Shown in pieces: positions 27,713 to 59,965 of a stretch of DNA of 64,000 bases. This DNA is from a virus. Its lineage: Duplodnaviria; Caudoviricetes. A program made the translations under genes and the position numbers. The notes under the pieces are model-generated. The model did no database searches. It saw nothing but the letters and a program-made list of their open reading frames with translations, and was not told the DNA's origin. The stretch is taken from positions 3,650 through 67,649 of IMG/VR virus record IMGVR_UViG_3300033066_001787; one strand, 5' to 3'. The stretch's first letter is position 1. The number at the start of each line of letters is the position of its first letter.

Positions 27713-27869
27713 GCGATGAAGCTGTATCTGAGATTTGCCAAACATTGATACTGCTATTTGGGATGTATTATGTTTTTAGAATCTACTTTTGGCCTTCAAA
27801 TCGAGACTGACTGATAATGCTCGCAATGGCACTCATTGCATTTGTGATTGTGTTTTCTAAGGCAACTTG

Positions 27870-29588
27870 ATGACGAATAGAAAGACCGGCCAAGGCAACG
27901 GACAGCCTCAGCCCACGTTGAACGTAGAGCAGCAGAAGGAACTCGATGCTCTCAAGGCGAGGTTTGTCGAGATCACGAACAATGTTCTACAGACGAGAAC
28001 GCAGTTCATGCAGCAGTTCTTAGATCCAAGGAGGGATCTCAACAAGGAATGCGGTTATCCAGACGTCAGGACGGTCGATCCAGACTTCTACCGAAACTTG
28101 TACGATTCAGAGGGTATTGCGACACGGGTGGTCAATGTTCTTCCTCAGGAATGCTGGCAGGAACAGCCGACGATCTATGAGGATGAAGATGAGGAGAACA
28201 TCACTGAGTTTGAGCAGGGTGTGCTCGATCTCTCTAAGAACTTACGAGGAGACAGCTGGTACAAGGATGAGAACATTACGCCGATCTGGGAGATGCTGAA
28301 ACGGGTCGATGAGCTGTCTGGCATCGGACGATTTGGCGTGCTGCTGTTCGGGTTCGATGATGGACTTTCTCTTGAGCAGCCGGTTCCAGGGCTGGAGAAC
28401 GTCGATTCTGGTGACGTAGCGACGATCCAAGGGTTTGACCAGGACCAGAAAGAGCCTTTGCCGATCCCTCGCTCGATTCAAGGGACAGACGCGCAGTACA
28501 CAGGGACGCAGTTTGCCCCTTACATGCCGGCAAAACCTCTCAAGAAAGGAGAGCGACGCAAGCTGATCTTCCTGCGAGCGTTTGATGAATCGCTGGTACA
28601 GATCGTGCGGTATGAGGCGAACGTCTACAGTCCAAGGTTCGGTCTCCCAGTGATGTACCGAATCACGTTCAATGATCCTCGCAATCAACACAGCGGTGTC
28701 GGCCTGCCAATGGCGACGCTGATGGTTCACTGGAGTCGAGTGCTCCACGTTGCCGATCGTCTCGGCAGCAGCGAGATCTTTGGGTATCCTCGCATGCAGT
28801 GCTCTTTGCATCGTTTGTTAGACATCGCCAAGCTCTACGGTGGATCGGCAGAGATGTACTGGAAGGGTGCTTTCCCTGGGATCAGTTTTGAGACTCATCC
28901 TCAGCTTGGGGGAGAGGTTCAAGTCGATCACGACTCAATCAGAGCCCAGATGTACGAGTGGCAGAACGATCTGCAGAGGTTCTTGCTCACGACGGGCATG
29001 TCCGCAAAAACGCTCGCACCTCAAGTCGTGGACCCTACGCCGCAGATCGACACTCAATTGCAGGGAGTGTGTATTGAGATCGGTATTCCCCAACGCATCT
29101 TCATGGGGTCGGAACGAGGTGAGCTTGCTTCTTCTCAGGACGACAAGACCTGGGGCATGAGAATCAAGTTCCGACAGTACATGTACCTCGTGCCGAGAGT
29201 GATCGTTCCCTTCTTCGATCGACTCATCAAGGTAGGAGTGCTGCCAGAACCTGCTGAAGAAAACGGTTATACTGTAAAGTGGCCTCAGATCGATACCCTT
29301 ACCGAGACGGAGAAGGCAACGGTCGCGCTACAGTTCACTCAAGCTCTTGCTGCCTACGTCAGCGGTGGTCTTGAACAAGTGTGTGTGCTCAAGGACTTCC
29401 TGGTCAACGTCATGGGTCTCGACTCTGCCTTGGCTGAACAGATCGTCGAGAACGCGATGTCTCAAGAACCAGCAGAATCAGCAACGCTGCCTGATCCTGA
29501 TAATCCTGTCGACGAGTACGGCAGACCGATGCCTTCAGTTGAAGAAGAACAAGCAGCGCAACAAGAACAAGCCCAACAGGGGGAATGA
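27870..29588 (+). CDS. portal protein (DUF1073-type)
   Basis: Y..EGIATRVV, IPQRIFMG..G.LAS..D, W..L...TE.EKA; follows terL. Confidence 0.85.
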   Translation: MTNRKTGQGNGQPQPTLNVEQQKELDALKARFVEITNNVLQTRTQFMQQFLDPRRDLNKECGYPDVRTVDPDFYRNLYDSEGIATRVVNVLPQECWQEQPTIYEDEDEENITEFEQGVLDLSKNLRGDSWYKDENITPIWEMLKRVDELSGIGRFGVLLFGFDDGLSLEQPVPGLENVDSGDVATIQGFDQDQKEPLPIPRSIQGTDAQYTGTQFAPYMPAKPLKKGERRKLIFLRAFDESLVQIVRYEANVYSPRFGLPVMYRITFNDPRNQHSGVGLPMATLMVHWSRVLHVADRLGSSEIFGYPRMQCSLHRLLDIAKLYGGSAEMYWKGAFPGISFETHPQLGGEVQVDHDSIRAQMYEWQNDLQRFLLTTGMSAKTLAPQVVDPTPQIDTQLQGVCIEIGIPQRIFMGSERGELASSQDDKTWGMRIKFRQYMYLVPRVIVPFFDRLIKVGVLPEPAEENGYTVKWPQIDTLTETEKATVALQFTQALAAYVSGGLEQVCVLKDFLVNVMGLDSALAEQIVENAMSQEPAESATLPDPDNPVDEYGRPMPSVEEEQAAQQEQAQQGE

Positions 29589-34495: not shown

Positions 34496-35689
34496 GTGTT
34501 AACTCAAGACTTTATTCTGAACGGACAAGGCCATGGAGCGGCTGCTCAAATGTTGGAGGGAGTCCGGTTTGACGCTGGCCTGCTCCGGCCGTTCATCGAC
34601 GAAAACAATCGAGCTTGCTGCTTGGTCAGCAATGGTCGTGGTGGACGAGAGGTTGTCGAAGTCCGAGAGCTGATCGCCAATGGGATCAATTCTCCAGTCT
34701 TCAACGCCACGTCTCTCCGCAAGGAAGAGTGGATCAAGCTGGACGAACAAGTCCTGCGTGCTGCTCGCTATCGACTGCGTGCTTGGGCTGACTTGGCTGC
34801 GGCCAACAGCTTTGGCGGTTTCAACGGGATGGGCACGACCATTCTCGAACATGAGACCATGAGTGATCCTGGCGAAGCGATCGTCGACATGGACGGTCTG
34901 GCTGCCGGACGAACAGATCAACCAGCGTTCCAGCTGCAAGGTCTGCCTCTGCCGATCACCCACATGGACTTCACGATCAGTGCTCGTAAGCTGGCTGCCT
35001 CCCGTAATCTGGGAATGCCGTTGAACAGCACCATGGCTGAAGTCGCTGGACGACGTGTCGCAGAGATGATCGAGAAGACCACGATTGGTACGAACACGGG
35101 CATCACCTACGGTGGAACGAACACCGCAGGCAGCTATGGTCGAACCAGTCAGGTGTACGGTTACACCAACTTCACGCCACGTCTGACCTACGCTTCGATG
35201 CGCAATCCAGCCACCACTGGAAGCTACACGGCATCGATGACCCTGGCTGACGTTCTGGCTCTGCTGGATCTTGCCAAGGCCAACAAGTTCTTTGGTCCGT
35301 TCATGCTGTACCATTCGAACGATTGGGACAAGTACCTTGACAACGACTACATCCTGACAGGCGGAAACGTTGCGACACAGACGCTGCGTAATCGTCTGCG
35401 AGCGATCGACGAGATCACCGATGTTCGTCGTCTTGACTTCATGTTCTCGACAGCTCCTACCCAGAACAACAACGCGGACAAGTACAACAACTTGAACCCG
35501 TTCACGTTCGTCCTGGTCCAGATGACTCCTGATGTCGCACGAGCGGTCAACGGGATGGACATCACTACCGTTCAGTGGGAGTCCAAGGGCGGCATGCAGT
35601 TGAACTTCAAGGTCATGGCGATCCAAGTGCCTCAGCTGCGAGCTGACCATTATGGTAGCTGTGGTATCGTTCACGGCACCTGTGCCTGA
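34496..35689 (+). CDS. major capsid protein (HK97 fold, Linocin-M18/encapsulin-like)
   Basis: LRKEEW..LD..V, LPLPITHMDF.I.AR.LAASR...P; GAGGAG RBS, GTG start. Confidence 0.88.
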   Translation: MLTQDFILNGQGHGAAAQMLEGVRFDAGLLRPFIDENNRACCLVSNGRGGREVVEVRELIANGINSPVFNATSLRKEEWIKLDEQVLRAARYRLRAWADLAAANSFGGFNGMGTTILEHETMSDPGEAIVDMDGLAAGRTDQPAFQLQGLPLPITHMDFTISARKLAASRNLGMPLNSTMAEVAGRRVAEMIEKTTIGTNTGITYGGTNTAGSYGRTSQVYGYTNFTPRLTYASMRNPATTGSYTASMTLADVLALLDLAKANKFFGPFMLYHSNDWDKYLDNDYILTGGNVATQTLRNRLRAIDEITDVRRLDFMFSTAPTQNNNADKYNNLNPFTFVLVQMTPDVARAVNGMDITTVQWESKGGMQLNFKVMAIQVPQLRADHYGSCGIVHGTCA

Positions 35690-46933: not shown

Positions 46934-47400
46934 AGCAGTATGAGGGTTGGATCGGTTTGGCCGAGCACCTTCATACTACGCTGAACGAGGTGATGGAAAA
47001 GACAACTCACAGACAGTACTTGATGTGGATGGAGAGACTGAAGCAGAACTGGGAGAGACCTTCAAGGACGGATTACTACCTCATGCAGATCGCAATGCAC
47101 GTTTGTAGACTCTTCCGAAAAGACCCAGACTCCATCACCCTCAAGATGTTCCGGTTGACTTGGAAAAAACCTAAGGTCAAACAGTTGACGATAGCAGAGA
47201 TGGCAGCCAGGGACAAGGCTATTCTGTTCCCCATGTTAGGAGTGAGACAAGATGTTAGACCAGATGATGTTCCAGCTCCTGGGGGACGGCAGCAGCTATC
47301 TCAACATGATGAAGCAGGCAGAGACGACAACCAACCAAGTCACGAACCAGATCGCAGCTCAGGTTCAGCAAGTGACGAAGTTCGGCAACAGCATCACTAA
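46930..47400 (+). CDS. tail assembly chaperone frameshift extension (T-like)
   Basis: In -1 frame after slippery site; lacks own ATG/RBS. Confidence 0.7.
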   Translation: MKQYEGWIGLAEHLHTTLNEVMEKTTHRQYLMWMERLKQNWERPSRTDYYLMQIAMHVCRLFRKDPDSITLKMFRLTWKKPKVKQLTIAEMAARDKAILFPMLGVRQDVRPDDVPAPGGRQQLSQHDEAGRDDNQPSHEPDRSSGSASDEVRQQHH

Positions 47401-50113
47401 TCATGCCCAGATGACGATCAGTTCGCTGAAAATGCAGCTGACCTCTCTGCTGGGTATCGCCTCTGCCGCTGGTGCGATCGGACTAGGGGTCAAGCTTGCC
47501 AGGGATGCAGAACAAGCTCAGATCCAGTTCGGTGTCATGCTTCACGATGCTGATAAGGCTGCCAAGATGATGGCTCAGATCGAGAGATTTGCGGCCGATA
47601 CTCCTTTGCAGACAGCAGGCATCCAACAAGCAGCCAAGACCCTCCTTCAGTTCGGTGTTGCGGGTGACAACGTGATGCCGATGTTGAAGGCTCTTGGTAA
47701 TGCGACTGGAGGAGACAACGAGAGATTCCAGCACATGTCTCTCGCCTTTGGTCAGATGTCAGCAGCTGGCCGTCTCATGGGGCAAGACCTCATGCAGATG
47801 GTCAACGCTGGCTTCAATCCTCTACAGCAGATCGCCAAGACGACTGGCAAGAGCATGGCGGCTCTCAAGCAAGAGATGGAGCATGGCCGGATCACTACGC
47901 AGATGGTGATGAAGGCATTCCAGGATGCGTCAGCTGCTGGCGGTCAGTTCGATGGACTCTTGGAGAAGCAATCCAAATCTCTCGGCGGTCTCTGGTCCAC
48001 GCTCACTGACAACGTACAGATCCAGCTCAAGAGGCTCTCGCAGCATGTCATCGACGCGATTGATCTCAAGGGTCTTCTCCTCAGGGTAAGCAACTTCGTG
48101 CAGGACTCTCAGAAGCCATTGGAGAAGTGGACTGACTACTTCATCAAGCAGGCCAAAGGGATCTACGAGTACGTTGCTCCTACTTTGGAGAGCTTGTGGA
48201 AAGGATTCACTACAGGTATTCAGATCGCAACAAACATCTGGAACGGTCTCAGTGACGAGATGAAGACGACGATCGTGATTGTGTCAAGTATTGCTGTTGG
48301 GCTTGGGCCGGTGATTGGACTGGTAGGAAGTCTTGCGGCGATGGTACCTGTCATGACGACTGCCTGGATTGCTGCCGGAGTTGCTGCGGTATCCTTTATG
48401 GAGTCAGCTCAACACGGAGCAAAAGGGCTGGTGGGATGGTTGAAACCTGTCTATGAGGGGATCAAGAAATACGTCGTTGAAGCGATCTGGTTTGCTGCGT
48501 ACACTATCACGGACTTCTCCACGGTCTGGGCTGCTGCTACGGCAGGTGCTTCCTACAATATCGTCAAGCTTGGAAATCAAGTTGTCTACGTGTTCAAGAC
48601 AGTTATTCCTGAGGTCATCGGATGGTTTCTCAAAGACTGGAAAAAGACCTTTGAGTACATGTCCACCTTAGTAGGAATGGAAGTTGACATCATAGTTGGT
48701 GACGTTGTTTGGATGATCAAAGAGATTGCCCGAGTTGCCAGAGAGGGTGGAGACATCAAACTGTTCGATGAACGCAAGAAAGAGGTTGAAGAATACCGCA
48801 AACAGGTTCTCGACGTGTTCGGAGACAGCTTCAAGATCCCAGATCGAGTCATCGGAGAGACAGAGCTACAGCTCAAGAAAGCAGCAGAGAACGCAGGCAA
48901 AGTCGTCAAGGACGGATTTGAGAACTACAAGAAAGAGAAGCAAGGACTGAGCAAGTTTGATCTTCCTGGGTTTGACAACTCCAAGATCGAGAAGTCCTCT
49001 CTGGATCTCGGCAAGACGATCGGTGCTAACCTCGCTGCTGGTGCTCAACACGGAGCTGACCAGATGAAGGGAGCATTGGTTGGTAGTGCCGGATATTATG
49101 ATCAGCTCTATGCTTACTTGCGAGGGAAGCAGACTCAGTTGGCGAGTATTCCCGAGATGCCGGCCACCAAGAGCAAGAAGAAGGCTGGCAAGAAGAAAGG
49201 TCCAACAGCGGACGATTACCAGGACATGGCCTATGAGGGAGAAGGCCCCCAGCCAAACAATCCATTCGGTCTCAACCTTCCTCCCAAGAGAGAGGACAAC
49301 CTTGCTCGAAACAAGAGACTACGACAAGAAGCTCTCGCCAAGGCTGATCAGAAAGAGGCCAAGACAAAACTGGACCAATCAGAGCAGACAGACGCATTCG
49401 CCAAGATAGGGAAAGATGCCAAAGAGCAGAACGAGACGACTCTGGCCGGTGGTCCAATGATGAGAGGGGTCAAAACCTTCCTCGTCGACATGGACAACGG
49501 TCTGAAATCGGCTAGCAAACTGTTCCAGAACACATTCCCCAAGATGGTGGAAGAAGAATGGATGGTTGGAAAAGACAACACGGAGTATGATGACGGAGAA
49601 GTGTCTGGAGGAGACTTCCACTTGCCTCCTGAGAACATTCCAACACACCATATCGATGGCAGCGTGACCTCGGGGTTTGACTTTGACCCGACATCTGATT
49701 CTTCCTCAGGAGAGACTTCTGGTGGTGATTTTGGAGAGCCTAAGAATGAATTTGGTCATCCCGAGAATACCAGATATAGCCGATACGCAGGATTTGAAGA
49801 TCATCTACCAGCAGAAGAGTCTACTCCTGTCCAATCGACTTACGGGGCAGACGGCAGCAGTACTTCTGGATTTGACTTTGAGATGCCTGAAGAACCTAAG
49901 TCTGTTGAAGAGCCTAGAGAAAGACGCAAGAAAGATAGCTCAGAAGACCGATCTCCGATTCCAGTTACTTTGACCAGTCCTGCTTCGACGAACGTCAAGC
50001 CGGCAGACAACAACACACAGCAGAAGATCGTTGAGTTCTTGAAGACGATCGCAGAGAACACCAAATCAGACAACAATAAATCAGGTGTCACCTTAGAAGG
50101 AGCAAACCTGTGA
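47252..50113 (+). CDS. tape measure protein
   Basis: FAADTP...I.QAAK.LL.FG, FGQMSAAGRLMGQDL.Q tape-measure domain; AGGAG RBS. Confidence 0.92.
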   Translation: MLDQMMFQLLGDGSSYLNMMKQAETTTNQVTNQIAAQVQQVTKFGNSITNHAQMTISSLKMQLTSLLGIASAAGAIGLGVKLARDAEQAQIQFGVMLHDADKAAKMMAQIERFAADTPLQTAGIQQAAKTLLQFGVAGDNVMPMLKALGNATGGDNERFQHMSLAFGQMSAAGRLMGQDLMQMVNAGFNPLQQIAKTTGKSMAALKQEMEHGRITTQMVMKAFQDASAAGGQFDGLLEKQSKSLGGLWSTLTDNVQIQLKRLSQHVIDAIDLKGLLLRVSNFVQDSQKPLEKWTDYFIKQAKGIYEYVAPTLESLWKGFTTGIQIATNIWNGLSDEMKTTIVIVSSIAVGLGPVIGLVGSLAAMVPVMTTAWIAAGVAAVSFMESAQHGAKGLVGWLKPVYEGIKKYVVEAIWFAAYTITDFSTVWAAATAGASYNIVKLGNQVVYVFKTVIPEVIGWFLKDWKKTFEYMSTLVGMEVDIIVGDVVWMIKEIARVAREGGDIKLFDERKKEVEEYRKQVLDVFGDSFKIPDRVIGETELQLKKAAENAGKVVKDGFENYKKEKQGLSKFDLPGFDNSKIEKSSLDLGKTIGANLAAGAQHGADQMKGALVGSAGYYDQLYAYLRGKQTQLASIPEMPATKSKKKAGKKKGPTADDYQDMAYEGEGPQPNNPFGLNLPPKREDNLARNKRLRQEALAKADQKEAKTKLDQSEQTDAFAKIGKDAKEQNETTLAGGPMMRGVKTFLVDMDNGLKSASKLFQNTFPKMVEEEWMVGKDNTEYDDGEVSGGDFHLPPENIPTHHIDGSVTSGFDFDPTSDSSSGETSGGDFGEPKNEFGHPENTRYSRYAGFEDHLPAEESTPVQSTYGADGSSTSGFDFEMPEEPKSVEEPRERRKKDSSEDRSPIPVTLTSPASTNVKPADNNTQQKIVEFLKTIAENTKSDNNKSGVTLEGANL

Positions 50114-51078
50114 CTGCTACATTAGTTGGACCTAGGAGTTGGTCGGGAAGTCGAGACGATCAGACTTTCACTGAGTACGAACTCGTCTGGTTGGTAAGAA
50201 CGACAGACACTCTCGATGGTCCAAACGTCGTGATGAACTGTCCAGGACTTCCTACAGTTGGATCAACATGGAACATCGGTAATGACTCGGATCAATGGGC
50301 ATACTGCTACCCAACTCTCAAGGTCACTATGCACGGTGTCCAGGAGGGTATGCCAGGATACCTCTGGACGGTGGCTCAGAAGTTCTCCACCAAACCTCTC
50401 ATCCGATGCAACGACACTCCTGTACAAGATCCAATGCAAGAGCCGATGAAGATCAGTGGCAGCTTTGTCAAGTACACGCAGGAGTATCGCTACGATCGGT
50501 TTGGCAACTTCCTCACCAACTCTGCGTTGGAGCTGTTGAGAGGCCCAGACACCGAATTCGACGCAAACCGGCCAACAGTTCGTATCGAGCAGAACGTATT
50601 GAGCCTTGACCTGCCTACATTCTCTGCGATGGTCGATTGTGTCAATGCCTACCCTCTCTGGGGACTACCTGCCCGGTGTATCAAGCTCAGTGAGCCGACA
50701 TGGGAGCGAAAGACAGTTGGAACCTGTAGCTACTACTACACCCGCACTCTCAACTTCGACATCAACTTCAACACGTTCGATCGCTATGTCGGTGACTTCG
50801 GAACAATGGTGCTCAAGGGACAGTGGAACACGACCACCGGTGCCTACGTCGTCTCACGAGGAGCCGATAGAACCAATCCGCAGCACTTCATGAGGTATGT
50901 CGACATCGCTGGCAATCCTGCTACGGTGGTTCTGAACGGTTATGGACTCCCTGCAGGAACTACCTTGAACCTCGGAACAGGGACCAGCGGTGGTAGTACT
51001 GGACCAATGGGACAGATCAAGATCGAGCGATACAGCGAAGCAGATTTCACTTTACTCAACATCCCAACTTCTCTCTGA
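50110..51078 (+). CDS. tail protein (distal tail/hub region)
   Basis: First gene after tape measure; beta-rich. Confidence 0.65.
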   Translation: MTATLVGPRSWSGSRDDQTFTEYELVWLVRTTDTLDGPNVVMNCPGLPTVGSTWNIGNDSDQWAYCYPTLKVTMHGVQEGMPGYLWTVAQKFSTKPLIRCNDTPVQDPMQEPMKISGSFVKYTQEYRYDRFGNFLTNSALELLRGPDTEFDANRPTVRIEQNVLSLDLPTFSAMVDCVNAYPLWGLPARCIKLSEPTWERKTVGTCSYYYTRTLNFDINFNTFDRYVGDFGTMVLKGQWNTTTGAYVVSRGADRTNPQHFMRYVDIAGNPATVVLNGYGLPAGTTLNLGTGTSGGSTGPMGQIKIERYSEADFTLLNIPTSL

Positions 51079-51087
51079 GGAGAAAAC

Positions 51088-51468
51088 ATGGCAGGCACGA
51101 TTCAAGTACGGTGCGGATTCAACCTCATCAATGGCAATGTAGCCTTCAAAGCCCCAATTGAGGGGTTCAACGCAACTCAGTCCACGGCCAAAGGTCCAAT
51201 CATTGGCGTCGTGGCGATTCCTACCACAGCAGGGGGAACAGCAATCAGCTTGACAGCTCTCGCTACTCCTGGGTGGGCTTGGGCGATGAATCAAGATGCG
51301 ACAAACTATGTCTCCATCGGTCTCATCGTCTCTGCGGCTTTCTACCCAATGATAGAGTTGCTGCCAGGACAAGCAGTTCCTATTCCTCTAAGCAGAACCC
51401 TGAACAATCTCGCAGCATTGGCGAACACGGCCACGGTGAACCTCGCGTTCTATGCGTTTGATAAATGA
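51088..51468 (+). CDS. putative tail protein
   Basis: GAGGAG RBS; synteny. Confidence 0.6.
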   Translation: MAGTIQVRCGFNLINGNVAFKAPIEGFNATQSTAKGPIIGVVAIPTTAGGTAISLTALATPGWAWAMNQDATNYVSIGLIVSAAFYPMIELLPGQAVPIPLSRTLNNLAALANTATVNLAFYAFDK

Positions 51469-52022
51469 CCAACCCCACCTCACTTGAAAGGAGCAATCAA
51501 GTGGACCAGCTACCAAATCCCGAGAATCTTCACTTCACCGAACAGGGAGTGATGCCTGCCGTATTCAACGAGTCAAAACCGTTGGTGAAGCTGACGATCG
51601 TTGAGACTGTCTACTTCCAGGCACCCAACGAAGATCCTCAGCAGTTCTCCAACAATGTGTTGAGAGTCCTCACTGACGTTGAAGAGGGAGAAGACCCCGA
51701 GCAACCTTATGTCCGCAACCTCACTGCTGACAAGGAATGGACGCCTCTCGACTTCGGGTGGCTGACTGACAACGTGAGCCTTTTTATTGTCCGCAATAAC
51801 GAGGGAAAGTTCAGTCAGGTCATCCCCACGGAAGAGATGAGAGCCACCTCCAACAGCAAGCACATTGAGCTGGGCGTCTACTTTGACGAGACCATCGAGG
51901 AGACCGGGCTGGTTGTCCTTCCCTCAGAGACACTCCGAGCGACTCCAAAACCTTCTGCCAAGTTCTTTGTTCGTTGTCTCAACGGCAAGGCCAAGTTCAC
52001 TCTCCAAGCATTTCCAAGGTGA
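51465..52022 (+). CDS. putative tail protein
   Basis: Synteny; long ORF. Confidence 0.55.
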   Translation: MTNPTSLERSNQVDQLPNPENLHFTEQGVMPAVFNESKPLVKLTIVETVYFQAPNEDPQQFSNNVLRVLTDVEEGEDPEQPYVRNLTADKEWTPLDFGWLTDNVSLFIVRNNEGKFSQVIPTEEMRATSNSKHIELGVYFDETIEETGLVVLPSETLRATPKPSAKFFVRCLNGKAKFTLQAFPR

Positions 52023-52025
52023 ATC

Positions 52026-52778
52026 ATGACAGAGAAGATGTTTTATCTGACAGAAAAAGACCGCAACACGATCAAGCAGTTCTTGGATATCCAGAAGAGA
52101 CAGAACTCGTTCACCAGGAGCGTCGCACCAGACAATCATCTACAAGGCACGACAGAGGTCTACATCGCAAAGGCCAATGGCTCGATTCCTGCAGTGACTG
52201 AGACAGCGACTGGAACAGGGACAGACTACTCCCCGCACTCTCTGCTGTGTAATATCTACTTGATCGAGATGGACACTGGGTTGTTGAAACCTGTCTCCGA
52301 TATTGCCTACCCAGTCTACAACCTGGGAGGATCGACGGTATCGGCCGGTTGGGTGTTGATCCATCGAGAGAAGTACGGCAAATGGGTCTGCGGTCTCGGA
52401 GGCTCTAGTACTTCCTCAGGAGGTGGCGGTGCGACTTACTTTGGGCAGTGTAACTGTTATAACTGCATCACTCCAGCTCAGGCGACAGTGACGGTTGCGA
52501 TGTGCTCTAACTGTCCTGACGGTGCTCCATTCACCTGGTTGTTCAATCCTGGAACTTACGTGTATGGATACTCCGAGCTTGGAGGAGACCACTACTTGAT
52601 CTGGGACAGCGGATGTGTCTGGAAAGGAGACCTGGTGTCTATCTCAACCGGCACAGGAACAGGCACTGGAACGAGCGATGACGCTGTGTATCAGTGGGTG
52701 TTCACGATCGGAGCGACTCCAGAGACAACGTCAGTCGTGTTGACTTACATCAGTGGTCCCAACATTCTTGACCTGTAG
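52026..52778 (+). CDS. putative tail-tip protein, Cys- and GT-rich
   Basis: TGTGTGTGT, GGSSTSSGGGG, CNCYNC. Confidence 0.6.
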   Translation: MTEKMFYLTEKDRNTIKQFLDIQKRQNSFTRSVAPDNHLQGTTEVYIAKANGSIPAVTETATGTGTDYSPHSLLCNIYLIEMDTGLLKPVSDIAYPVYNLGGSTVSAGWVLIHREKYGKWVCGLGGSSTSSGGGGATYFGQCNCYNCITPAQATVTVAMCSNCPDGAPFTWLFNPGTYVYGYSELGGDHYLIWDSGCVWKGDLVSISTGTGTGTGTSDDAVYQWVFTIGATPETTSVVLTYISGPNILDL

Positions 52779-52787
52779 GAGACCATA

Positions 52788-53444
52788 GTGAGCAACTATC
52801 TTGGATTCAAACCAGCGTTCATCGACAACTTTCTCTGTGACATCAATCTCATTCCTGACAAAGCTCACGAAGCTCCTGATAACAGTGCTCTGAAGTGTAA
52901 CGTCTGCCTTCAACCGAGCTGGGGAAGCATCTGTATACAAGAGAGTGCTCCGGCAAGCGTTGATCAGCCAGTATATGTCACTACAGATTTTTTTGAGCAC
53001 AGCTTCAACTACTACTACTCATCAAGCTATGTATTCACCCTCACCGGAGCAGTGACAGGAGGAAACTGGACATTTTCTTATGTCACTCCTGTAACTTACG
53101 ATCCTTGTAGCAATACAGGTATAGGAACTGTTGGCATATTTTTGGTATTTCCATTACATGCAGGAGTACCAACTGGCTGCGTAGGTATTGACATGTGGGA
53201 CAACAGTCGAACCCACTATGCGACAGTTCATTCAGGATCTCCTCCAGCTTGCTCAATCAGCCCAAGACCTCTGAGAGGAAGTTGGGAGTGGGAGACAATA
53301 ACCCACTTTCAAGGCAATGGAATGATTTACGGACACAACTTTTTCTCCTGTTTCGATACTCCAGCTTTCCACTGTGTTCACGAAGGTGGCTCTGGTGGTA
53401 ATGACCCTACTGAAGAAAACTACTTCATCAACGGGAGATGGTGA
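52788..53444 (+). CDS. Cys-rich putative tail/receptor-binding protein
   Basis: AGGAG RBS, GTG start; P.NSALKCNVCLQP. Confidence 0.55.
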   Translation: MSNYLGFKPAFIDNFLCDINLIPDKAHEAPDNSALKCNVCLQPSWGSICIQESAPASVDQPVYVTTDFFEHSFNYYYSSSYVFTLTGAVTGGNWTFSYVTPVTYDPCSNTGIGTVGIFLVFPLHAGVPTGCVGIDMWDNSRTHYATVHSGSPPACSISPRPLRGSWEWETITHFQGNGMIYGHNFFSCFDTPAFHCVHEGGSGGNDPTEENYFINGRW

Positions 53445-54010
53445 TGATATTCAAACCAACGATTCCAACTCTGGATTTTCGATGTCCAGTCTGGATGAGA
53501 GTTGTTGACGCTTATACAGTGTATCCTAACATCTCCAGTAATTTTACAGTTTACAGGTGTTGCGACTGTTTCGCAGATGAACTGCTTCCCAACGCGACCA
53601 GCGAAGCTCCTTGTATAAATTGCTCAACTTGTCTTGCTCCTTTCGTTCCTGAGATTCCTGGCAGCTGCGGAGAGTGGCCCAGGACAATCCATGTAGTGCT
53701 TGACAGTGCTCTCGACGGAGTGACTGAGTTTGATGTAGACTATGATACAGGTTATGGAGGATATCAAAAGATCTTCGGAGAGAATCTATACGGGTTCTTC
53801 ACCTGCCCTTGCGTCGACGATCCGAGCTTACTGTCAGAACCAACTTTGCAATACAATGATGGAGTCTCTGTGCTTTGCGTCTACACCCTCTCTGGATCTC
53901 CTCCAGTGTTTGAAAGCGGAACGATCGTGCCATTGGCCCTAGATGTTGGAGCATCTACAGGCGGTGGAGCCTGCTCGATCACGACATACAGTTTGGAGAT
54001 CACATGGTAA
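53438..54010 (+). CDS. Cys-rich putative tail/receptor-binding protein
   Basis: CCDC, CINCSTCLAP, CPC. Confidence 0.55.
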   Translation: MVMIFKPTIPTLDFRCPVWMRVVDAYTVYPNISSNFTVYRCCDCFADELLPNATSEAPCINCSTCLAPFVPEIPGSCGEWPRTIHVVLDSALDGVTEFDVDYDTGYGGYQKIFGENLYGFFTCPCVDDPSLLSEPTLQYNDGVSVLCVYTLSGSPPVFESGTIVPLALDVGASTGGGACSITTYSLEITW

Positions 54011-54744
54011 AAGAGATTGAATTCGTCGCTGACAACAAGTTCAACTCCAGGTGTAGCTCGATCATCTACACTTCAAAACCTAGCAAGGTTCCAGCAAACT
54101 CTGCTCTACTATGCAATACGTGTCTCAATCCTATCGTCAGGCATGCTACCACTTGCTGCCTTTACACTTGTTTTAATCTTTCATGGATGGGGGGAAACAC
54201 TCCTCTACCAACTTCGTTTACTTACTCAGGACACACGTTTACGCTCGCAATAGATCAAACTTACCCAGACAGTATTCTATTTCCACCAATGTCAAGTCTT
54301 GGAACGCTTGGATCCCCCTCTTACACCTGCAACTCACGAAACGATAGATCTCAAAGCGCAGGATTTAATAAACCTTTCACGCAATGGATACTCACTCACT
54401 ATCCTTACGGGTCTCCAGAACCTTACACAATGTTAGACATAACGAATCTGACAGTTCAATGGATAGCAGCAGGAGGAGTTTTCTCAATTGTTGATAACGT
54501 ACATCTACAATATAAGTCAGTAGACTTCTCTTGCAAGGGAGGAGGATTTTACCAAACCATTGCTGAATACTCTCCTGTTGATGTTGCTGAGCCTGGAACT
54601 CCATTAGACTACAGAAGCATATGGCCAACAAACCTAATTCTAACAGCTCTAGATAGCTGTCCTAGTGGCTGCGACAATGCGCTACACCCTGGAACTGGCT
54701 GCGGCACCTACGTTCAAACTGTGTATCCAAACTATGACCACTAA
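54004..54744 (+). CDS. Cys-rich putative tail/receptor-binding protein
   Basis: P.NSALLCNTCLNP. Confidence 0.55.
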   Translation: MVKEIEFVADNKFNSRCSSIIYTSKPSKVPANSALLCNTCLNPIVRHATTCCLYTCFNLSWMGGNTPLPTSFTYSGHTFTLAIDQTYPDSILFPPMSSLGTLGSPSYTCNSRNDRSQSAGFNKPFTQWILTHYPYGSPEPYTMLDITNLTVQWIAAGGVFSIVDNVHLQYKSVDFSCKGGGFYQTIAEYSPVDVAEPGTPLDYRSIWPTNLILTALDSCPSGCDNALHPGTGCGTYVQTVYPNYDH

Positions 54745-54754
54745 AGGAAGGAAC

Positions 54755-55138
54755 ATGTCTCAGGAACCAATTCAAGTTGTTAATCTCCCAAACAATCCTA
54801 AGTACACAGAACAGATTCATAATTTTCTAAGACAAGCCCCAGGAAACAACCCTCAACTAATTGCCCAATTGAGATTCAAATACGTCATCACTATGAAAGT
54901 CTTGTCCGAAAGCGAGTTTCAAAAAATAGTAGCGTCTGTTCCAAGACCTACCAAAGGACTGGGGGACGTTGTCGCTTACGTTGCCAAGGTGACAGGAATC
55001 AGTGCAATCGTCAAGTACATGTCGAAGAAGACAGGAGTGCCTTGCGGATGTGGAGCGAGACAGGAAGCTCTCAACAGAGCTGTTCCTCTGCCAAAAGTGA
55101 TCACTGGATGGATACCCCCTACGATTGAGGAGCGATAA
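54755..55138 (+). CDS. GLGD...CGC..RQE.LN motif protein
   Basis: Motif in C-terminal half. Confidence 0.6.
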   Translation: MSQEPIQVVNLPNNPKYTEQIHNFLRQAPGNNPQLIAQLRFKYVITMKVLSESEFQKIVASVPRPTKGLGDVVAYVAKVTGISAIVKYMSKKTGVPCGCGARQEALNRAVPLPKVITGWIPPTIEER

Positions 55139-55976
55139 ATTGCGTTGGAGCTATGGAGTAATGACTGTGCCGTCTCGCAGAGAGACTACCCTTCCCTTCA
55201 CCTTGGAGACCTTAGAGAAAGCAGGATTTGACCAACCGCGGCTGTTCATCGATGGAGCGAGAGATGACAGCGAGTACAGGCACTTGGGACTACGGACAAC
55301 GTGCCACTTCCCGACGATCAGGACAGCAGCGAACTGGACGTTGGCTCTCTACGAACTCTACACGAGAGACCCTGCTGCGAATCGATTTGCCGTGTTCCAG
55401 GACGACATCGTCATCTGCAAGAACACCAAGCAGTACCTAGACACGTTCAGCTATGGCACCTACGCGCAGAAGTTCTACTGGAACCTACACACGTTTCCTG
55501 TCAATGAGGAAGAGCAGGACGGTGAGAAAGGGTTTCGACCGAAAGACCACGTTGGGTTCTACCCTTCCAATCAACTAGGCAAGGGAGCACTTGCCCTGGT
55601 ATTTGATCGAGAGGCTGTCTGCGCCTTGTTCAGCACTGACTACCTCACCAGACGATTCCAGGATGAGCGGAGAGGGCATCAGTCGATCGATGGTGGTGTA
55701 GTGACAGCGATGACCAACGTAGGATACAAGGAGCACGTTCACTACCCCAGCCTGGTGCAGCACATCGGGAAGATCTCAACCATGGGCCACGAGAAGAACG
55801 GCGTGACCATCTATCCACCGTCTGCTTCTTTCCCAGGAGAATCCTTTGACGCAATGGAATTAGTATGCTCAGTGAAAAAATTACCAGAGCACTCCAAAGT
55901 GTTGGTGTCACAGATCTACGGGTTGCCCAGTGGCTGGGACGGCCATGTCGATGCCCCGAGCGAAGGGAAAAGCTAG
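55125..55976 (+). CDS. GT-A fold glycosyltransferase (GT2/GT25-like)
   Basis: YGVMTVPSR, VFQDD (DxD-like), PSLVQH.G. Confidence 0.8.
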   Translation: MRSDKLRWSYGVMTVPSRRETTLPFTLETLEKAGFDQPRLFIDGARDDSEYRHLGLRTTCHFPTIRTAANWTLALYELYTRDPAANRFAVFQDDIVICKNTKQYLDTFSYGTYAQKFYWNLHTFPVNEEEQDGEKGFRPKDHVGFYPSNQLGKGALALVFDREAVCALFSTDYLTRRFQDERRGHQSIDGGVVTAMTNVGYKEHVHYPSLVQHIGKISTMGHEKNGVTIYPPSASFPGESFDAMELVCSVKKLPEHSKVLVSQIYGLPSGWDGHVDAPSEGKS

Positions 55977-56065
55977 ATCAATTGGAGGTCTGGGCAAAGC
56001 GTATAATTAAAGGACGCATAGAGGGTGCGTTGAAATATCTCAATGAACTCATGGAGCAAGATTGA
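55865..56065 (+). CDS. small CxC..R.E.L motif protein
   Basis: CRCPERREKL; stop overlaps the next ATG. Confidence 0.5.
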   Translation: MLSEKITRALQSVGVTDLRVAQWLGRPCRCPERREKLDQLEVWAKRIIKGRIEGALKYLNELMEQD

Positions 56066-57066
56066 TGAACGTTGGAGCATTCGTTTATTGTACGACACAG
56101 GGGTTGGGCATCTTGGCCAAATCCTTCTTTGACAACGGAGTAGTCAACAAACCCTGTATTCACCTCCACCACTGCAGGAAGAACAACACTCACTGGTATC
56201 CAGAAGGGACTCCCCGAATTGACAAACGTCTCGGGTACAGGATCGCTCACGAGTGGCTGAAGACGATCGACGTGCTGCTGGTGTTTGAGACTCCTTTTGA
56301 CTGGACTCTTATTCCTACAGCGAAGAGACTCGGCATACCAGTCGTCTTCATGCCGATGTACGAGTGCACTCCTCAAGTGATGCCTCATGAGCCTGACCGT
56401 TGGATCTGTCCTTCCGTGTTGGACTATGACTACTTCAAGAGCAAGCCAGACTGCAGGTACATCCCAGTGCCGGTGAGCGTGCCTTGGAAGCTACGAACTG
56501 AGGCAAAGGTATTCGTCCATAACGCAGGCAACGGAGGGCTGCTAGGACGCAATGGAACGAGAGAGCTCGTCAATTCCCTCAAGTACATCAAGAGCGATGC
56601 GCAGATCATCATCAGGGGCCAAGAGTTCAACGAGGAGTTTGAGAATGAGATTGCCAAAGTCTCATCCAATGTCGACGTTCACTACTCATCAGGCACGATC
56701 CCCTATGACAAGCTTTGGGAGGACGGAGATGTCTTTGTGTTCCCCGAGAAGTTCAACGGGCTGTCTCTTCCTCTTCAGGAAGCACGAGCGGCAGGAATGG
56801 CTGTTGCTGCTACTGATCGTCGTCCAAACAATCTCTACTTGCCACTGAGACACCTCATCCAGGTCAGCGGATACAACCGAGCGAGAGTGGGAGTGAGCTA
56901 CCTTGAGTTTGATGAAGCAATCGTCAACCCTCTTCACATCGCTAACAGGATCGATGAGATGTATGGTCAAGACATCTCGGATGTCTCCTACTCAGGCCAG
57001 GAGTTTGCCAAAACCTACTCTTGGGAAAACTTGAAACCTCAGTACATGGAGGCTTTCTCACTATGA
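56065..57066 (+). CDS. GT-B glycosyltransferase (GT4-like)
   Basis: VHNAG.GG...RNG, DVFVFPEKFNGLSLPLQEA.AAG.AV..TD. Confidence 0.85.
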   Translation: MNVGAFVYCTTQGLGILAKSFFDNGVVNKPCIHLHHCRKNNTHWYPEGTPRIDKRLGYRIAHEWLKTIDVLLVFETPFDWTLIPTAKRLGIPVVFMPMYECTPQVMPHEPDRWICPSVLDYDYFKSKPDCRYIPVPVSVPWKLRTEAKVFVHNAGNGGLLGRNGTRELVNSLKYIKSDAQIIIRGQEFNEEFENEIAKVSSNVDVHYSSGTIPYDKLWEDGDVFVFPEKFNGLSLPLQEARAAGMAVAATDRRPNNLYLPLRHLIQVSGYNRARVGVSYLEFDEAIVNPLHIANRIDEMYGQDISDVSYSGQEFAKTYSWENLKPQYMEAFSL

Positions 57067-57968
57067 AAATTCTCTACATTGCCAAGCATACTCCTTGTGA
57101 TAATGAAGACGAGATTGCTATTGCCTATGCTCTGGAACAACTTGGCCATGAAGTACTAAGGATTCAGGAATTCAATGGACACAACGCTCTCGCTCATCGT
57201 GCTGACTTCTGCTTGTTCCATAAGTATGACAACTACGAGGTCATTGAGGCTGTCTCTAAGCGTGTTCCAACCATCTGCTGGTTCTTCGACAAAGTCAAGT
57301 TTGACGAACCAAAGCTGGCAGCCAGGAGCGAGCTGAGAGTCAACTGGATGGAGCAGATCACTAAGTTCTGTCACACTATCTTCTGCACGGATGGAGACTG
57401 GGTTGACCAAGATGAGTCAGGAAAGCTCTGCTGGTTGATGCAGGGAGCGGATGAACGTTATGTAGGGTTTGGAGAGCCTAACCAACAGGTTGCTCCGATC
57501 CTCTTTACAGGAACTCCTCGACACGGACAGCAGCGAGAAGACCATATTGCTCATTTGCAAGAACGTTGGGGTGATAGGTTCCAGGTGTTAGGGGCAGGAG
57601 GCAATAAGAGCAGGAAGCACGGTCGAGAACTCGCAAACATCATCGCCAGCTCTAAGATCATCATCGCTCCAGACGGTCCAAGCACTGATCGATACTGGTC
57701 AAATAGGGTCTACCTCATCTCTGGGTTTGGCGGTCTGCTGCTGCATCCTCACTGTTCAAATCTCAGACACCACTACAGTTCAAAAGAAGTTCTGATGTAC
57801 GCCGATCGAGACCATCTTGACGACATGATCGAGATCTTCTTGGACATGGACAATTCAAAGTTGCAAGAGATCAGGGTCAATGCTTACGAGAGAACTCTCA
57901 AGGACAATCTCTATCGTCATCGGTGTGAGCAGCTGGTCAATACCTTCAAGGAGCGAAGCAAATGGTAG
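57063..57968 (+). CDS. GT-B glycosyltransferase (CgeB/DUF3880-like)
   Basis: ILFTG, L...IASSKI.I, SNRVY...G.GG.LL. Confidence 0.8.
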   Translation: MKILYIAKHTPCDNEDEIAIAYALEQLGHEVLRIQEFNGHNALAHRADFCLFHKYDNYEVIEAVSKRVPTICWFFDKVKFDEPKLAARSELRVNWMEQITKFCHTIFCTDGDWVDQDESGKLCWLMQGADERYVGFGEPNQQVAPILFTGTPRHGQQREDHIAHLQERWGDRFQVLGAGGNKSRKHGRELANIIASSKIIIAPDGPSTDRYWSNRVYLISGFGGLLLHPHCSNLRHHYSSKEVLMYADRDHLDDMIEIFLDMDNSKLQEIRVNAYERTLKDNLYRHRCEQLVNTFKERSKW

Positions 57969-58483
57969 AACCAATATCAGATCCAGCCTACTGGAGAGAT
58001 CGACTAGCCTGCTACAACGCAAGCAATCCTCACCACATCATCATGAAGATGGATATCGACGAGTGGGGCAAGATCGAGTCAGTACACAGACTATTACTTG
58101 CTCAGCTCCTCAAGCCAAATGACTCGATCCTTGACGCCGGATGTGGATATGGTCGGCTATTGAGGTTGATGCCTACGACATGGAGAGGAGAGTATCTCGG
58201 CGTCGATCTCTCTCCTGACTTCATCGAGCTGGCGAGGAAGGAACATCCTGACTGTGATTTCGTCGTTGGCCGTCTCGATGATCTATCAAGAATCGCCTAT
58301 GTTCCGAACCAAGACAACCCGTTGAAGAAGTTTGACTGGTGCGTATGCGTCTCGATCCGAGAGATGGTGATCAAGAATGAAGGAGAATCATCGTGGACTA
58401 GCAAATTAGCGCAGATGAGGAAGATCAGCAAACGTGTGTTGATCCTTGAGTACAACGTCAACGACAAGGGAGAGATTCTGTGA
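57962..58483 (+). CDS. class I SAM-dependent methyltransferase
   Basis: ILDAGCGYGR, GVDLS, GRLDD. Confidence 0.85.
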   Translation: MVEPISDPAYWRDRLACYNASNPHHIIMKMDIDEWGKIESVHRLLLAQLLKPNDSILDAGCGYGRLLRLMPTTWRGEYLGVDLSPDFIELARKEHPDCDFVVGRLDDLSRIAYVPNQDNPLKKFDWCVCVSIREMVIKNEGESSWTSKLAQMRKISKRVLILEYNVNDKGEIL

Positions 58484-58920
58484 TTGAAAAGATTTGGGGA
58501 AGCCAGAAGAACGGAGATTTGCTGGCGATCTGGGTACATGGCAAACAAGTCCCTCGGGAACAGGGCACTTGTCAATTCCTCACTCCTCCTTTTACAGAAC
58601 TACAGGTGGGATACTTCAACTACCAGGAAGGTCATGAGTTCAAGGCTCACAAGCATATCCCGCGGAAGAGGGTCATTGAGTACACTGCCGAGACTCTGCT
58701 GATCTGCTCTGGTTCACTGAGGTTCGATCTCTACTGCGAGAACGGTGATCCAGTACGGTCAGACGTTGCGGTGGCCGGAGACATTCTCATTCTTCTCAGG
58801 GGAGGTCATGGCTTTCAAGCATTGGCCGATCTAGAGATGATCGAGATCAAGCAAGGACCGTTCAATCCACGATTTGATAAGATGCCTCTACACGGAGCAG
58901 AAGAAGATGCAAGCGTATGA
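58480..58920 (+). CDS. WbuC-like sugar-pathway cupin
   Basis: AHKH...E.L....G, GD...L..GGHGF......IEIKQGP. Confidence 0.8.
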   Translation: MIEKIWGSQKNGDLLAIWVHGKQVPREQGTCQFLTPPFTELQVGYFNYQEGHEFKAHKHIPRKRVIEYTAETLLICSGSLRFDLYCENGDPVRSDVAVAGDILILLRGGHGFQALADLEMIEIKQGPFNPRFDKMPLHGAEEDASV

Positions 58921-59965
58921 ACGATTGGAGAACTTGTTTGAGGAGTGGGCGCAAGTCGACAACGCAGTGGCTTGTAGCTCTGGCACGTCAGCTATTCAGC
59001 TGGCGATCGAGGCTCTTCAACTTCCCAAGGGTAGCACCGTCCTGATCCCTGAGTTCTGCATGATCGCTATCCCACGAGCGGTCAAGATGGCAGGTCTACA
59101 GGTCAAGACGATCGACATCGAGCTGAAGAGGCTCAATATTGATCCAGAGCTGTTGCCTGACCAGATCACCAACTACCAAGAACCAGCTTCTGACATGGAG
59201 TACAACCTTCCTCAGTCTCCCTACCAGAACGTGTCAGCCATCATCGTCGTCTCCACTTATGGCCGAGCTGCGAACAGTCTGGTGTTTGACTGGGCTAACC
59301 TTCACAACATCCCGGTGATTGAAGACCTAGCAGAAGCTCACGGAGTTCATCCTGATTACCGATCAGCAGCGTATTGCTGGAGCTTCTACAAGAACAAGAT
59401 CATCTGTGGAGAAGAGGGAGGGCTGGTTGCTTTCAAGGAGAAGGAAGTTGCTGACCGAGCGAGATCTCTACGCTGTATGGGATTCAACTCAGAGCACGAT
59501 TTCCTCCACAGGCCAGGAGGGTTCAACGCGAGGATGTCGAACGCTCATGCTGAGATCATCCTTCAGTCGCTGGCTCAGGCCGACAACAACTTGAAGAAGC
59601 GAGAGGACATGGTTGACTTGTATGCTTCTCTCATCTCTCAGGAGTTCTGGATGACAGAGCGAGACGTCAACTGGGTCTATGACATCCAGTTCCCTCATGG
59701 TCATCGGTTGAGGAATCGGGCAGAAGATATGGCGGTGGCGATGAGGGTCTGCGGAGCGAGAATGTCATTCAAGCCGGTGACTCGTCAGCTAGAGTTCTTG
59801 GCGAAGTCTCCCAGACTCGGAATGAAAGAGCCTCTCTGGACGTGGACGGAAGCTCACACTGCCTCTCAGAACGTGTTCTACCTTCCACTGACTCCCAATC
59901 AGTACGCTTTCGACGAGGTAGAGACAGCGGCAAAGCTCTTCAACCGCCTCGTGAACACTCTATGA
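58907..59965 (+). CDS. DegT/DnrJ/EryC1/StrS PLP aminotransferase (perosamine-synthase-like)
   Basis: SSGTSAIQLA, IEDLAEAHG, SFYKNKII..EEGG (PLP Lys), GFNARMSN. Confidence 0.9.
   Translation: MQAYERLENLFEEWAQVDNAVACSSGTSAIQLAIEALQLPKGSTVLIPEFCMIAIPRAVKMAGLQVKTIDIELKRLNIDPELLPDQITNYQEPASDMEYNLPQSPYQNVSAIIVVSTYGRAANSLVFDWANLHNIPVIEDLAEAHGVHPDYRSAAYCWSFYKNKIICGEEGGLVAFKEKEVADRARSLRCMGFNSEHDFLHRPGGFNARMSNAHAEIILQSLAQADNNLKKREDMVDLYASLISQEFWMTERDVNWVYDIQFPHGHRLRNRAEDMAVAMRVCGARMSFKPVTRQLEFLAKSPRLGMKEPLWTWTEAHTASQNVFYLPLTPNQYAFDEVETAAKLFNRLVNTL

Follow-up and report, generated by a model that had tools for sequence, protein, structure and literature searches.

A Variable Glycosyltransferase and Amino-Sugar Cassette Beside the Tail-Tip Genes of an Uncultured Phage Family: A Candidate System for Virion Glycosylation

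Introduction

To our knowledge, glycosylation of phage virions has been shown for only a few mycobacteriophages, in which it shields the particles from antibodies. The present study concerns a cassette of six genes, here called A to F, at positions 55125-59965 of a 64,000-nucleotide stretch of DNA (the window) from an uncultured tailed phage of ~68 kb; the window corresponds to bases 3650-67649 of the 67,649-bp IMG/VR record IMGVR_UViG_3300033066_001787, for which CheckV gives a completeness of 95%. The genes encode three predicted glycosyltransferases, a methyltransferase, a cupin, and a short aminotransferase, and the analogies set out below indicate that the cassette is most likely a variable version of the virion-linked glycan cassettes known from mycobacteriophages and giant viruses. 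We put at about even the chance that it glycosylates, in the cytoplasm, the tail-tip proteins of the phage itself with a methylated amino-deoxy sugar derived from a host keto-sugar.

According to PMC12363180, which cites Freeman et al. 2023, mycobacteriophages Che8, Corndog, and Myrna use their own glycosyltransferases to glycosylate capsid and tail-tube proteins. Like those cassettes, the one described here has soluble glycosyltransferases encoded beside virion structural genes. It differs from them in following the tail-tip genes, in being universal to its family, which is uncultured, and in including an amino-sugar branch of cupin, aminotransferase, and methyltransferase. Moreover, its candidate modification sites are internal Gly-Thr-Gly-Thr (GTGT) loops of tail-tip proteins, whereas those of the mycobacteriophages are the C termini of capsid or tube proteins, and it is known from genes alone. 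Searched by tblastn against 50,697 cultured-phage records, genes A and B have no match; gene C matches only Streptomyces phage proteins annotated as glycosyltransferases, at 24–30% identity. As reviewed in PMC9614988, giant viruses decorate virion proteins (the Mimivirus fibril, the chlorovirus glycans) by means of transferases and viral nucleotide-sugar tailoring, including aminotransferases and methylation. Those viruses are eukaryotic and their pathways complete, whereas the phage lacks the dehydratase step and would require a host intermediate.

Parts of the cassette also recall other systems. The aminotransferase F is a DegT enzyme, as in the guanosine diphosphate (GDP)-perosamine synthase and LegC systems, and in relatives of the phage a LegB- or deoxythymidine diphosphate (dTDP)-glucose-type 4,6-dehydratase lies directly upstream of it; in the window, unlike in those systems, F is paired with a cupin instead. 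The WbuC/DUF6016 cupins, for which we know of no established function, and CapF resemble gene E as small metal cupins with an H..H..E..H pattern. Unlike E, the CapF cupin is fused to a reductase and works on uridine diphosphate (UDP)-sugars; CapF C3-epimerises a UDP-4-keto-6-deoxy sugar before reduction (PMC3699295). Finally, phage DNA glycosylation clusters (T4, RB69/DLP3, and the metavirome clusters of Pyle et al.) have soluble transferases, sometimes with synthesis of nucleoside diphosphate (NDP)-sugars, and the window genome, too, encodes a thymidylate synthase (TS) homologue. Unlike those clusters, the cassette lies in the tail operon and shows no co-occurrence with the TS homologue among family members.

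Results

Six Genes Close the Tail Operon

The six open reading frames (ORFs) of the cassette are co-oriented on the + strand and form the last part of the tail operon (Table 1). The initial annotation, made from the letters alone, had read three glycosyltransferases, a methyltransferase, a cupin, and a DegT aminotransferase in six tightly overlapped genes after the tail module. Its account of the gene content is borne out, by profiles for B, C, D, and F and by structure models for A and E, and the position after the tail module is confirmed by the tape-measure and tail-tip genes upstream. The tight packing holds for genes B to F, which overlap or abut (with ATGA and GTGA overlaps), and not for A and B, which lie ~86 nt apart. 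GGAG-type sites are found ~10 nt 5′ of the B, C, and F starts (likely 56065, 57063, and 58907), and the F start at 58907 agrees with the public gene call of 352 aa. None of the A–F proteins contains a transmembrane (TM)-like segment, the maximum KD19 being 1.32, and promoter and terminator scans gave no excess over shuffled sequences.

Gene A has no match in Pfam, NCBIfam, or PHROG, and searches of PDB sequences with the single sequence and with an 18-homologue profile returned nothing. Its AlphaFold2 model (predicted local distance difference test [pLDDT] 83), built like that of E from an alignment of viral homologues, has a GT-A fold. The best structural match is the catalytic domain of human POMGNT1 (Z 17.7, root-mean-square deviation 3.5 over 227 residues), followed by GnT-I (Z 15.8); both enzymes extend protein-linked glycans. 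The remaining listed matches score at most 13.5, and Mimivirus R655 and R699 are among the structural neighbours. The structural alignment with GT13 enzymes has ~17% identity, and the protein carries an invariant FQDD motif of the DxD type and a conserved C-terminal His. In fold, DxD motif, and best structural match, gene A resembles glycosyltransferase family GT13, of which no sequence profile recognizes it as a member. Its relatives number at least 203 in a large protein collection; all lack a Pfam domain, and in the few cases where a name is given, it is "hypothetical". The model thus places gene A in a GT-A family that has no Pfam model and that appears GT13-like by structure. Gene A homologues with 30% identity also occur in contigs of Planctomycetes metagenome-assembled genomes (MAGs) (L041:7503-8690 and L042:7575-8711), where they adjoin a Ser/Thr kinase-domain protein of ~1500 aa and a protein of ~700 aa with a glycosyltransferase domain; these look like a cellular branch of the gene A family.

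The two other transferases are of the GT-B type. Gene B is matched in its C-terminal half, marginally, by Glyco_trans_1_4 (PF13692, 27.9 bits against a cut-off of 27) and falls below the cut-off of PF00534 (25.3 against 26.4), whereas gene C is well above that of PF13524 (48.5 bits against 25) and also matches PHROG 28745, a glycosyltransferase family. The similarity of gene D to TylM1 is confined to the S-adenosylmethionine (SAM) motif (E 0.004).

Gene E scores 20.9 bits on the WbuC model TIGR04366, short of its cut-off of 42, to which a homologue in a related locus (L026:9558-10007) comes close with 40.2 bits. Searches of PDB sequences with the single E sequence and with a profile found nothing. 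The model of E is a β-barrel cupin (pLDDT 82) in which H57, H59, E71, and H110, the residues of the H..H..E..H cupin-ligand pattern, are invariant. Its top structural match is the cupin domain of Staphylococcus aureus CapF (Z 12.9), with unrelated cupins within 1 Z unit, and FdtA/QdtA-type cupins are absent from the structural matches listed. In the Atlas it neighbours DUF6016/WbuC clusters, of which many are viral. Gene F is a clear DegT enzyme (PF01041, 144.4 bits against a cut-off of 19.8) of a subfamily that is ~25 residues shorter at the N terminus than the solved DegT enzymes. Its best PDB relative is the Caulobacter GDP-perosamine synthetase 3BN1 (E 4e-23), with whose SFFGNK stretch its SFYKNK aligns; K175, in this SF..NK stretch, is invariant in 31 family members and is presumably the lysine that binds pyridoxal 5′-phosphate (PLP). 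The score of F is below the cut-off of every NCBIfam equivalog (LegC, PseC, DesI, ArnB, WecE), LegC being the best at 126.9 against 420 and PseC reaching 84.5 against 423.5.

The Cassette Is Conserved in Position and Variable in Content

A single-protein scan of viral contigs with gene F returned nothing, and viral loci were found only with a multiple alignment of its homologues (alignment A1). These homologues of F number in the hundreds, are short (about 320–345 aa), and in many cases lie on contigs of 25–77 kb. Thirty-six viral loci, several of them truncated, were retrieved with A1, and their neighbourhoods were reconstructed by our own ORF calling (longest-ORF greedy, so that some starts are too long) and BLAST clustering. 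Of these aminotransferase-selected loci, 35 have a homologue of F, 27 of B, 22 of D, 21 of A, and 14 each of C and E. To remove the bias of selecting by gene F, a second set of family members was picked by capsid homology alone, which added 19 long records outside the first set, 13 of them at least 90% complete. Gene A is present in 17 of the 19 and in all 13 of the near-complete records, whereas gene F is found in 4 of 19 (3 of the 13) and the TS homologue (PF00303) in 9 of 19 (5 of the 13). Strong matches to gene B (E 6e-84 to 7e-71) are restricted to the same four records that carry F (3 of the 13 near-complete), which makes B the candidate amino-sugar transferase.

Altogether, some 50 related uncultured phage contigs have a cassette in this position, with variable content. 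In nearly every relative examined, the tape-measure gene is followed by the tail-tip genes, then by gene A, and then by variable enzymes, all on the strand of the tail genes, and this family-wide conservation at one position excludes an origin of the cassette in misassembled host DNA, which the initial annotation had named as an outcome that would refute it. Compared with the window, ten complete relatives have 39–67% identity in the terminase, portal, capsid, PolA, and tail genes and 37–49% in A and B; the cassette has thus diverged along with the phage core. The guanine-plus-cytosine (GC) content of the ten spans 33–64%, and these comparisons point to an old family on diverse hosts.

The closest counterpart in layout is the relative L176, with A-B-C, one extra ORF, and then D-E-F, and with no dehydratase in the stretch fetched. 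Cassettes of other relatives encode further enzymes, among them a LegB/dTDP-glucose-type 4,6-dehydratase, an NDP-sugar dehydrogenase, a PLOD-type glycosyltransferase, a GDP-mannose 4,6-dehydratase paired with a sugar C-methyltransferase, and FkbM- and TylF-like methyltransferases. Gene D in the relatives usually adjoins the pair formed by a cupin or dehydratase and the aminotransferase. Genes for HNH homing endonucleases are inserted in or beside the cassettes of several relatives (L010, L021, and L026; cluster 18, e.g., L026:15592-16107), and they could help to explain frequent swaps of modules.

A Cupin and a Dehydratase Alternate Upstream of the Aminotransferase

Across the whole 67,649-bp record there is no match to the short-chain dehydrogenase/reductase (SDR) dehydratase profile PF01370 or to NTP_transferase PF00483, and a host intermediate is therefore needed, as the initial annotation had proposed from the lack of a nucleotidyltransferase and a 4,6-dehydratase. 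The gene directly upstream of F takes one of three forms in the family: a LegB-like dehydratase, the cupin E, or, in two loci, a protein of 378 aa. The first two exclude each other, 15 loci having E, 15 the LegB-like dehydratase, and none both (Fisher p 1e-6, kinship being ignored). In seven E-bearing loci another part of the cassette encodes a GDP-mannose 4,6-dehydratase, and seven others, the window among them, have no dehydratase; at least six loci besides the window (L007, L017, L018, L020, L025, and L176) combine E and F in this way with no dehydratase.

In a quick tree of F, 18 of 33 inner branches are open and no partner-specific clades are resolved; the intermingling of partner types in this poorly resolved tree suggests repeated partner swaps. 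The F branch is long in the window (1.92), in L176 (2.62), and in L020 (1.75), against a median of 0.68, and none of the 39 family-invariant residues of alignment A1 is changed in the F of the window. A mycaminose-like route for D, E, and F, in which they would be an N,N-dimethyltransferase, a 3,4-ketoisomerase, and a C3 aminotransferase, was considered and is neither supported nor contradicted by the TylM1 match, confined as it is to the SAM motif, and by the structural matches listed for E. The 378-aa protein (cluster 52; L015 and L032, e.g., L032:8899-10035), which replaces the cupin or dehydratase, has no Pfam or NCBIfam match and may be a third way of feeding the aminotransferase.

A Gly-Thr-Gly-Thr Motif Is Enriched in Tail-Tip Proteins

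The proteins encoded upstream of the cassette contain GTGT loops. In 11 proteomes of the family, the window included (245 k residues), GTGT occurs 49 times and TGTG 43 times, as opposed to 7 for GGTT, 3 for TTGG, 8 for GTTG, and 12 for TGGT, so that the motif is 4–30 times over-represented relative to its permutations; its Ser analogue shows no such excess in these 11 proteomes. The window itself has five GTGT/TGTG motifs against 1.2 expected, a number reached by none of 200 within-protein shuffles, and 6 of the 11 proteomes, including that of the window, exceed at least 99% of such shuffles. The codons of GTGT vary, and the motif is therefore not a DNA repeat. The sites fall mainly in three tail-tip protein families (in 6 of 10, 4 of 6, and 3 of 11 members) and in the fibre-like products of genes adjoining the cassette, and in its counts and positions the link between cassette and GTGT loops that the initial annotation had raised holds at the level of the family.

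The motif is equally over-represented in relatives without F and thus goes with the family and with gene A, not with the amino sugar. The nearest cultured phage, which lacks A, would be expected to have it 5.8 times in 15.4 k residues and does not have it once (p 0.003), and the motif is likewise absent from 18.7 k residues of non-family loci.

Discussion

In our best reading, the cassette is a membrane-free cytoplasmic glycosylation unit that makes up the final part of the late (virion) operon and is most likely directed at the tail-tip and fibre proteins of the phage. In such a scheme, A would place the first sugar on a protein acceptor, with the GTGT loops of the tail-tip proteins as candidate sites. 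The cupin E would then take a host-made NDP-4-keto-6-deoxyhexose, at best guess GDP-4-keto-6-deoxymannose and alternatively dTDP-4-keto-6-deoxyglucose, and subject it to a metal-dependent C3 or C3/C5 epimerisation or to a 3,4-keto shift. Transamination of the product by F would give an NDP-amino-dideoxyhexose, which D may methylate on N or O, and B, inherited together with F, would transfer the amino sugar, to which C could add a further sugar. Among the three targets that the initial annotation had put forward, namely the virion, the DNA, and the host surface, the virion fits these results best.

Several observations weigh against this scheme. The glycan is a prediction from genes, and the family has no cultured member. 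The GT13-like fold of gene A leaves its acceptor unfixed, and 5 of the 11 proteomes have no significant excess of the motif; moreover, the association of the GT-A enzyme with GTGT, suggestive as it is, amounts to effectively one evolutionary contrast, of one family with a few outgroups, and the motif could be structural. For E, the CapF match hardly stands out from those to unrelated cupins, and one Atlas neighbour cluster has been auto-named a QdtA-type 3,4-ketoisomerase. With F under all NCBIfam equivalog cut-offs, the nucleotide carrier and the aminated carbon are guesses, and where F has a long branch, in several cassettes that lack a LegB-like dehydratase, the cause could be a changed substrate or relaxed constraint.

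The same enzymes might serve other ends. Phage glycosyltransferases that alter host surface glycans are well known (PMC12619734), and a cassette that remodels an envelope precursor at the cytoplasmic face, or a host protein, might block superinfection or the sticking of progeny to debris. The last genes of a late operon are often accessory ones, sugar tailoring differs between relatives as strongly as would be expected of an arms-race trait, and the Planctomycetes homologues of gene A beside a Ser/Thr kinase and a glycosyltransferase would also accord with such a role. Yet the cassette is fixed beside the tail-tip genes, and A, kept across hosts of such different GC content and diverging like the core, fits a virion function better than it fits a host-specific conversion gene. 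Nor does the locus resemble a seroconversion or O-antigen modification module: with no TM-like segment in A–F there is no obvious Gtr-, Wzx-, or Wzy-type membrane protein, families at which no profile search was aimed, and the whole record has no match to the integrase profile PF00589. We consider a host target unlikely. Decay of the amino-sugar branch is another explanation, and a decidedly unlikely one. It holds that D, E, and F have no substrate for want of a dehydratase, of which the record indeed has no match, and that the transferases work on ordinary host NDP-sugars; the long F branches of the window and of its layout twin L176 would agree with this. All six frames are, however, intact and translationally coupled, F keeps the family-invariant residues including the conserved Lys, E keeps its metal ligands, and the recurrence of E and F without a dehydratase in other loci is not what decay would predict.

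The remaining alternative is hypermodification of DNA, in which the TS homologue would make a 5-hydroxymethyl or 5-hydroxy pyrimidine nucleotide and the cassette would glycosylate that base, as in T4, RB69, and DLP3. Published phages do pair TS homologues with glycosyltransferases and phage NDP-sugar synthesis (PMC13326640), all six cassette enzymes are soluble, and Pyle et al. place DNA-glycosylating clusters near phage structural genes and relate their transferases to lipopolysaccharide and teichoic-acid enzymes, a further point against a virion target. The initial annotation had accordingly linked the cassette to an Asp-type TS homologue and to glycosylation of 5-hydroxymethylcytosine (hmC). 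This link fails in the family. While gene A is in 13 of the 13 near-complete capsid-selected relatives, the TS homologue is in 5; among near-complete records, 8 of the 16 that carry F have the TS homologue, as do 4 of the 10 that lack F (Fisher p 0.70); and by our own count each of the four complete relatives without TS has gene C. In addition, 40 kb separate the TS cluster from the cassette, which closes the tail operon, and no cytosine-5 methyltransferase match turned up in the record; a search of it for the Tet/JBP family was blank as well, with controls equally silent, and is uninformative. The mark used to recognise 5-hydroxy-dCMP (deoxycytidine monophosphate) synthases is D169N (PMC13326640), and this signature is absent from the TS homologue, which in a hand alignment reads RSND at Escherichia coli ThyA 166–169 and so keeps Asp169. 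Because the cassette does not track the TS homologue, the case for DNA glycosylation is weakened, as is that for tying the cassette to the putative hmC pathway that the genome also carries, and we regard DNA glycosylation as highly improbable.

Returning to glycosylation of the virion, this environmental phage family, whose hosts differ widely in GC content, retains a glycosyltransferase next to the tail-tip genes while it varies the sugar chemistry, which suggests that glycan coats on adsorption organelles are an old and common phage trait. A bolder generalization, possible though tentative, is that siphovirus-like phages throughout the family O-glycosylate a GTGT sequon on tail-tip and fibre proteins with the GT13-like enzyme A, the glycan being elaborated by a fast-swapping tool-kit in which a WbuC-type cupin replaces a 4,6-dehydratase by drawing on a host 4-keto sugar. 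If this were true, it would provide the first defined phage glycosylation sequon and the first biochemical role for WbuC/DUF6016 cupins. The initial annotation had gone too far in rating the cassette its strongest candidate for a new system, given that mycobacteriophages and giant viruses have virion-linked glycan systems of the same kind, of which this is a variable version. What appears new is an unannotated GT13-like GT-A family that is universal to an uncultured phage family, the use of either a cupin or a dehydratase ahead of the aminotransferase, a cupin–aminotransferase pair that seemingly lives on a borrowed host keto-sugar, and a candidate Thr sequon, GTGT.

Genomic Context

The features of the window are collected in Table 1. 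The four tail-tip genes are common to the family and always lie directly upstream of the cassette, from which they are separated in the window by four ORFs that are unique to this phage.

Table 1. Positions in the window of the cassette genes and of other features discussed in the text
Feature	Position	Strand	Description
Gene A	55125-55976	+	GT-A fold glycosyltransferase; public gene call begins at 55140
Gene B	56065-57066	+	GT-B (GT4-like) glycosyltransferase, C-terminal half matched
Gene C	57063-57968	+	Second GT-B-type glycosyltransferase, PF13524; likely start ATG 57063, overlapping the B stop
Gene D	57962-58483	+	Small class I SAM methyltransferase
Gene E	58480-58920	+	WbuC/DUF6016-like metal cupin, directly upstream of F
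Gene F	58907-59965	+	Short DegT-family PLP aminotransferase; 352 aa from ATG 58907; ORF opens at 58874; last gene of the operon
Tape-measure protein	47252-50113	+	PHROG tape-measure families, best E 5e-47; marks the tail module 5′ of the cassette
Four conserved tail-tip genes	50110-51078, 51088-51468, 51465-52022, 52026-52778	+	Common to the family, always directly upstream of the cassette
Three GT-repeat loops	50974-50985, 52209-52223, 52647-52673		Within the tail-tip genes
Four ORFs unique to the phage	52788-55138	+	Located 3′ of the tail-tip genes and 5′ of the cassette; probable receptor-binding or fibre proteins
TS homologue	13038-14159		PF00303
Portal	27867-29588		Best cultured-virus match Hardycor1
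Major capsid protein	34496-35689		Hypervariable insertion

The four ORFs have no homologue in the fetched relatives and no Pfam or PHROG match, and they are probably receptor-binding or fibre proteins. Two of them, at 52788-53444 and 54004-54744, have in common an N-terminal motif of 30 residues (43% identity, BLASTP E 6e-5) and differ elsewhere; from this pattern they may be alternative receptor-binding proteins that share a docking segment. No tRNA gene was found. The sequencing runs listed for this DNA are two DNA runs from a single study, with no RNA run among them. In the TS homologue, an Asp a few residues past RSND may match ThyA N177, and an Asp at that position may mean specificity for dCMP.

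Outside the family, the DNA of the cassette has no match among cultured phages. The portal finds its best cultured-virus match in the haloarchaeal Halorubrum phage Hardycor1 (29% identity over 96%), and the nearest cultured relatives of the capsid are Brevundimonas phages (33%), followed by Hardycor1 (27.5%). The archaeal host that the portal match might imply was set aside in view of the Brevundimonas relatives of the capsid, the family A polymerase, and the GGAG-type sites. Family contigs in MAGs of Opitutaceae, Dehalococcoidales, and Caulobacter (L038, L039, and L040) are phage-sized (36.8–65.3 kb) and look like binned phage, and they provide no reliable host; the capsid relatives would make Caulobacterales a first guess. 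The major capsid protein contains a hypervariable insertion (columns about 415–460 of alignment A5), which in the relative L057 is long with a high content of Thr, Ser, and Gly, and which may be a surface loop.

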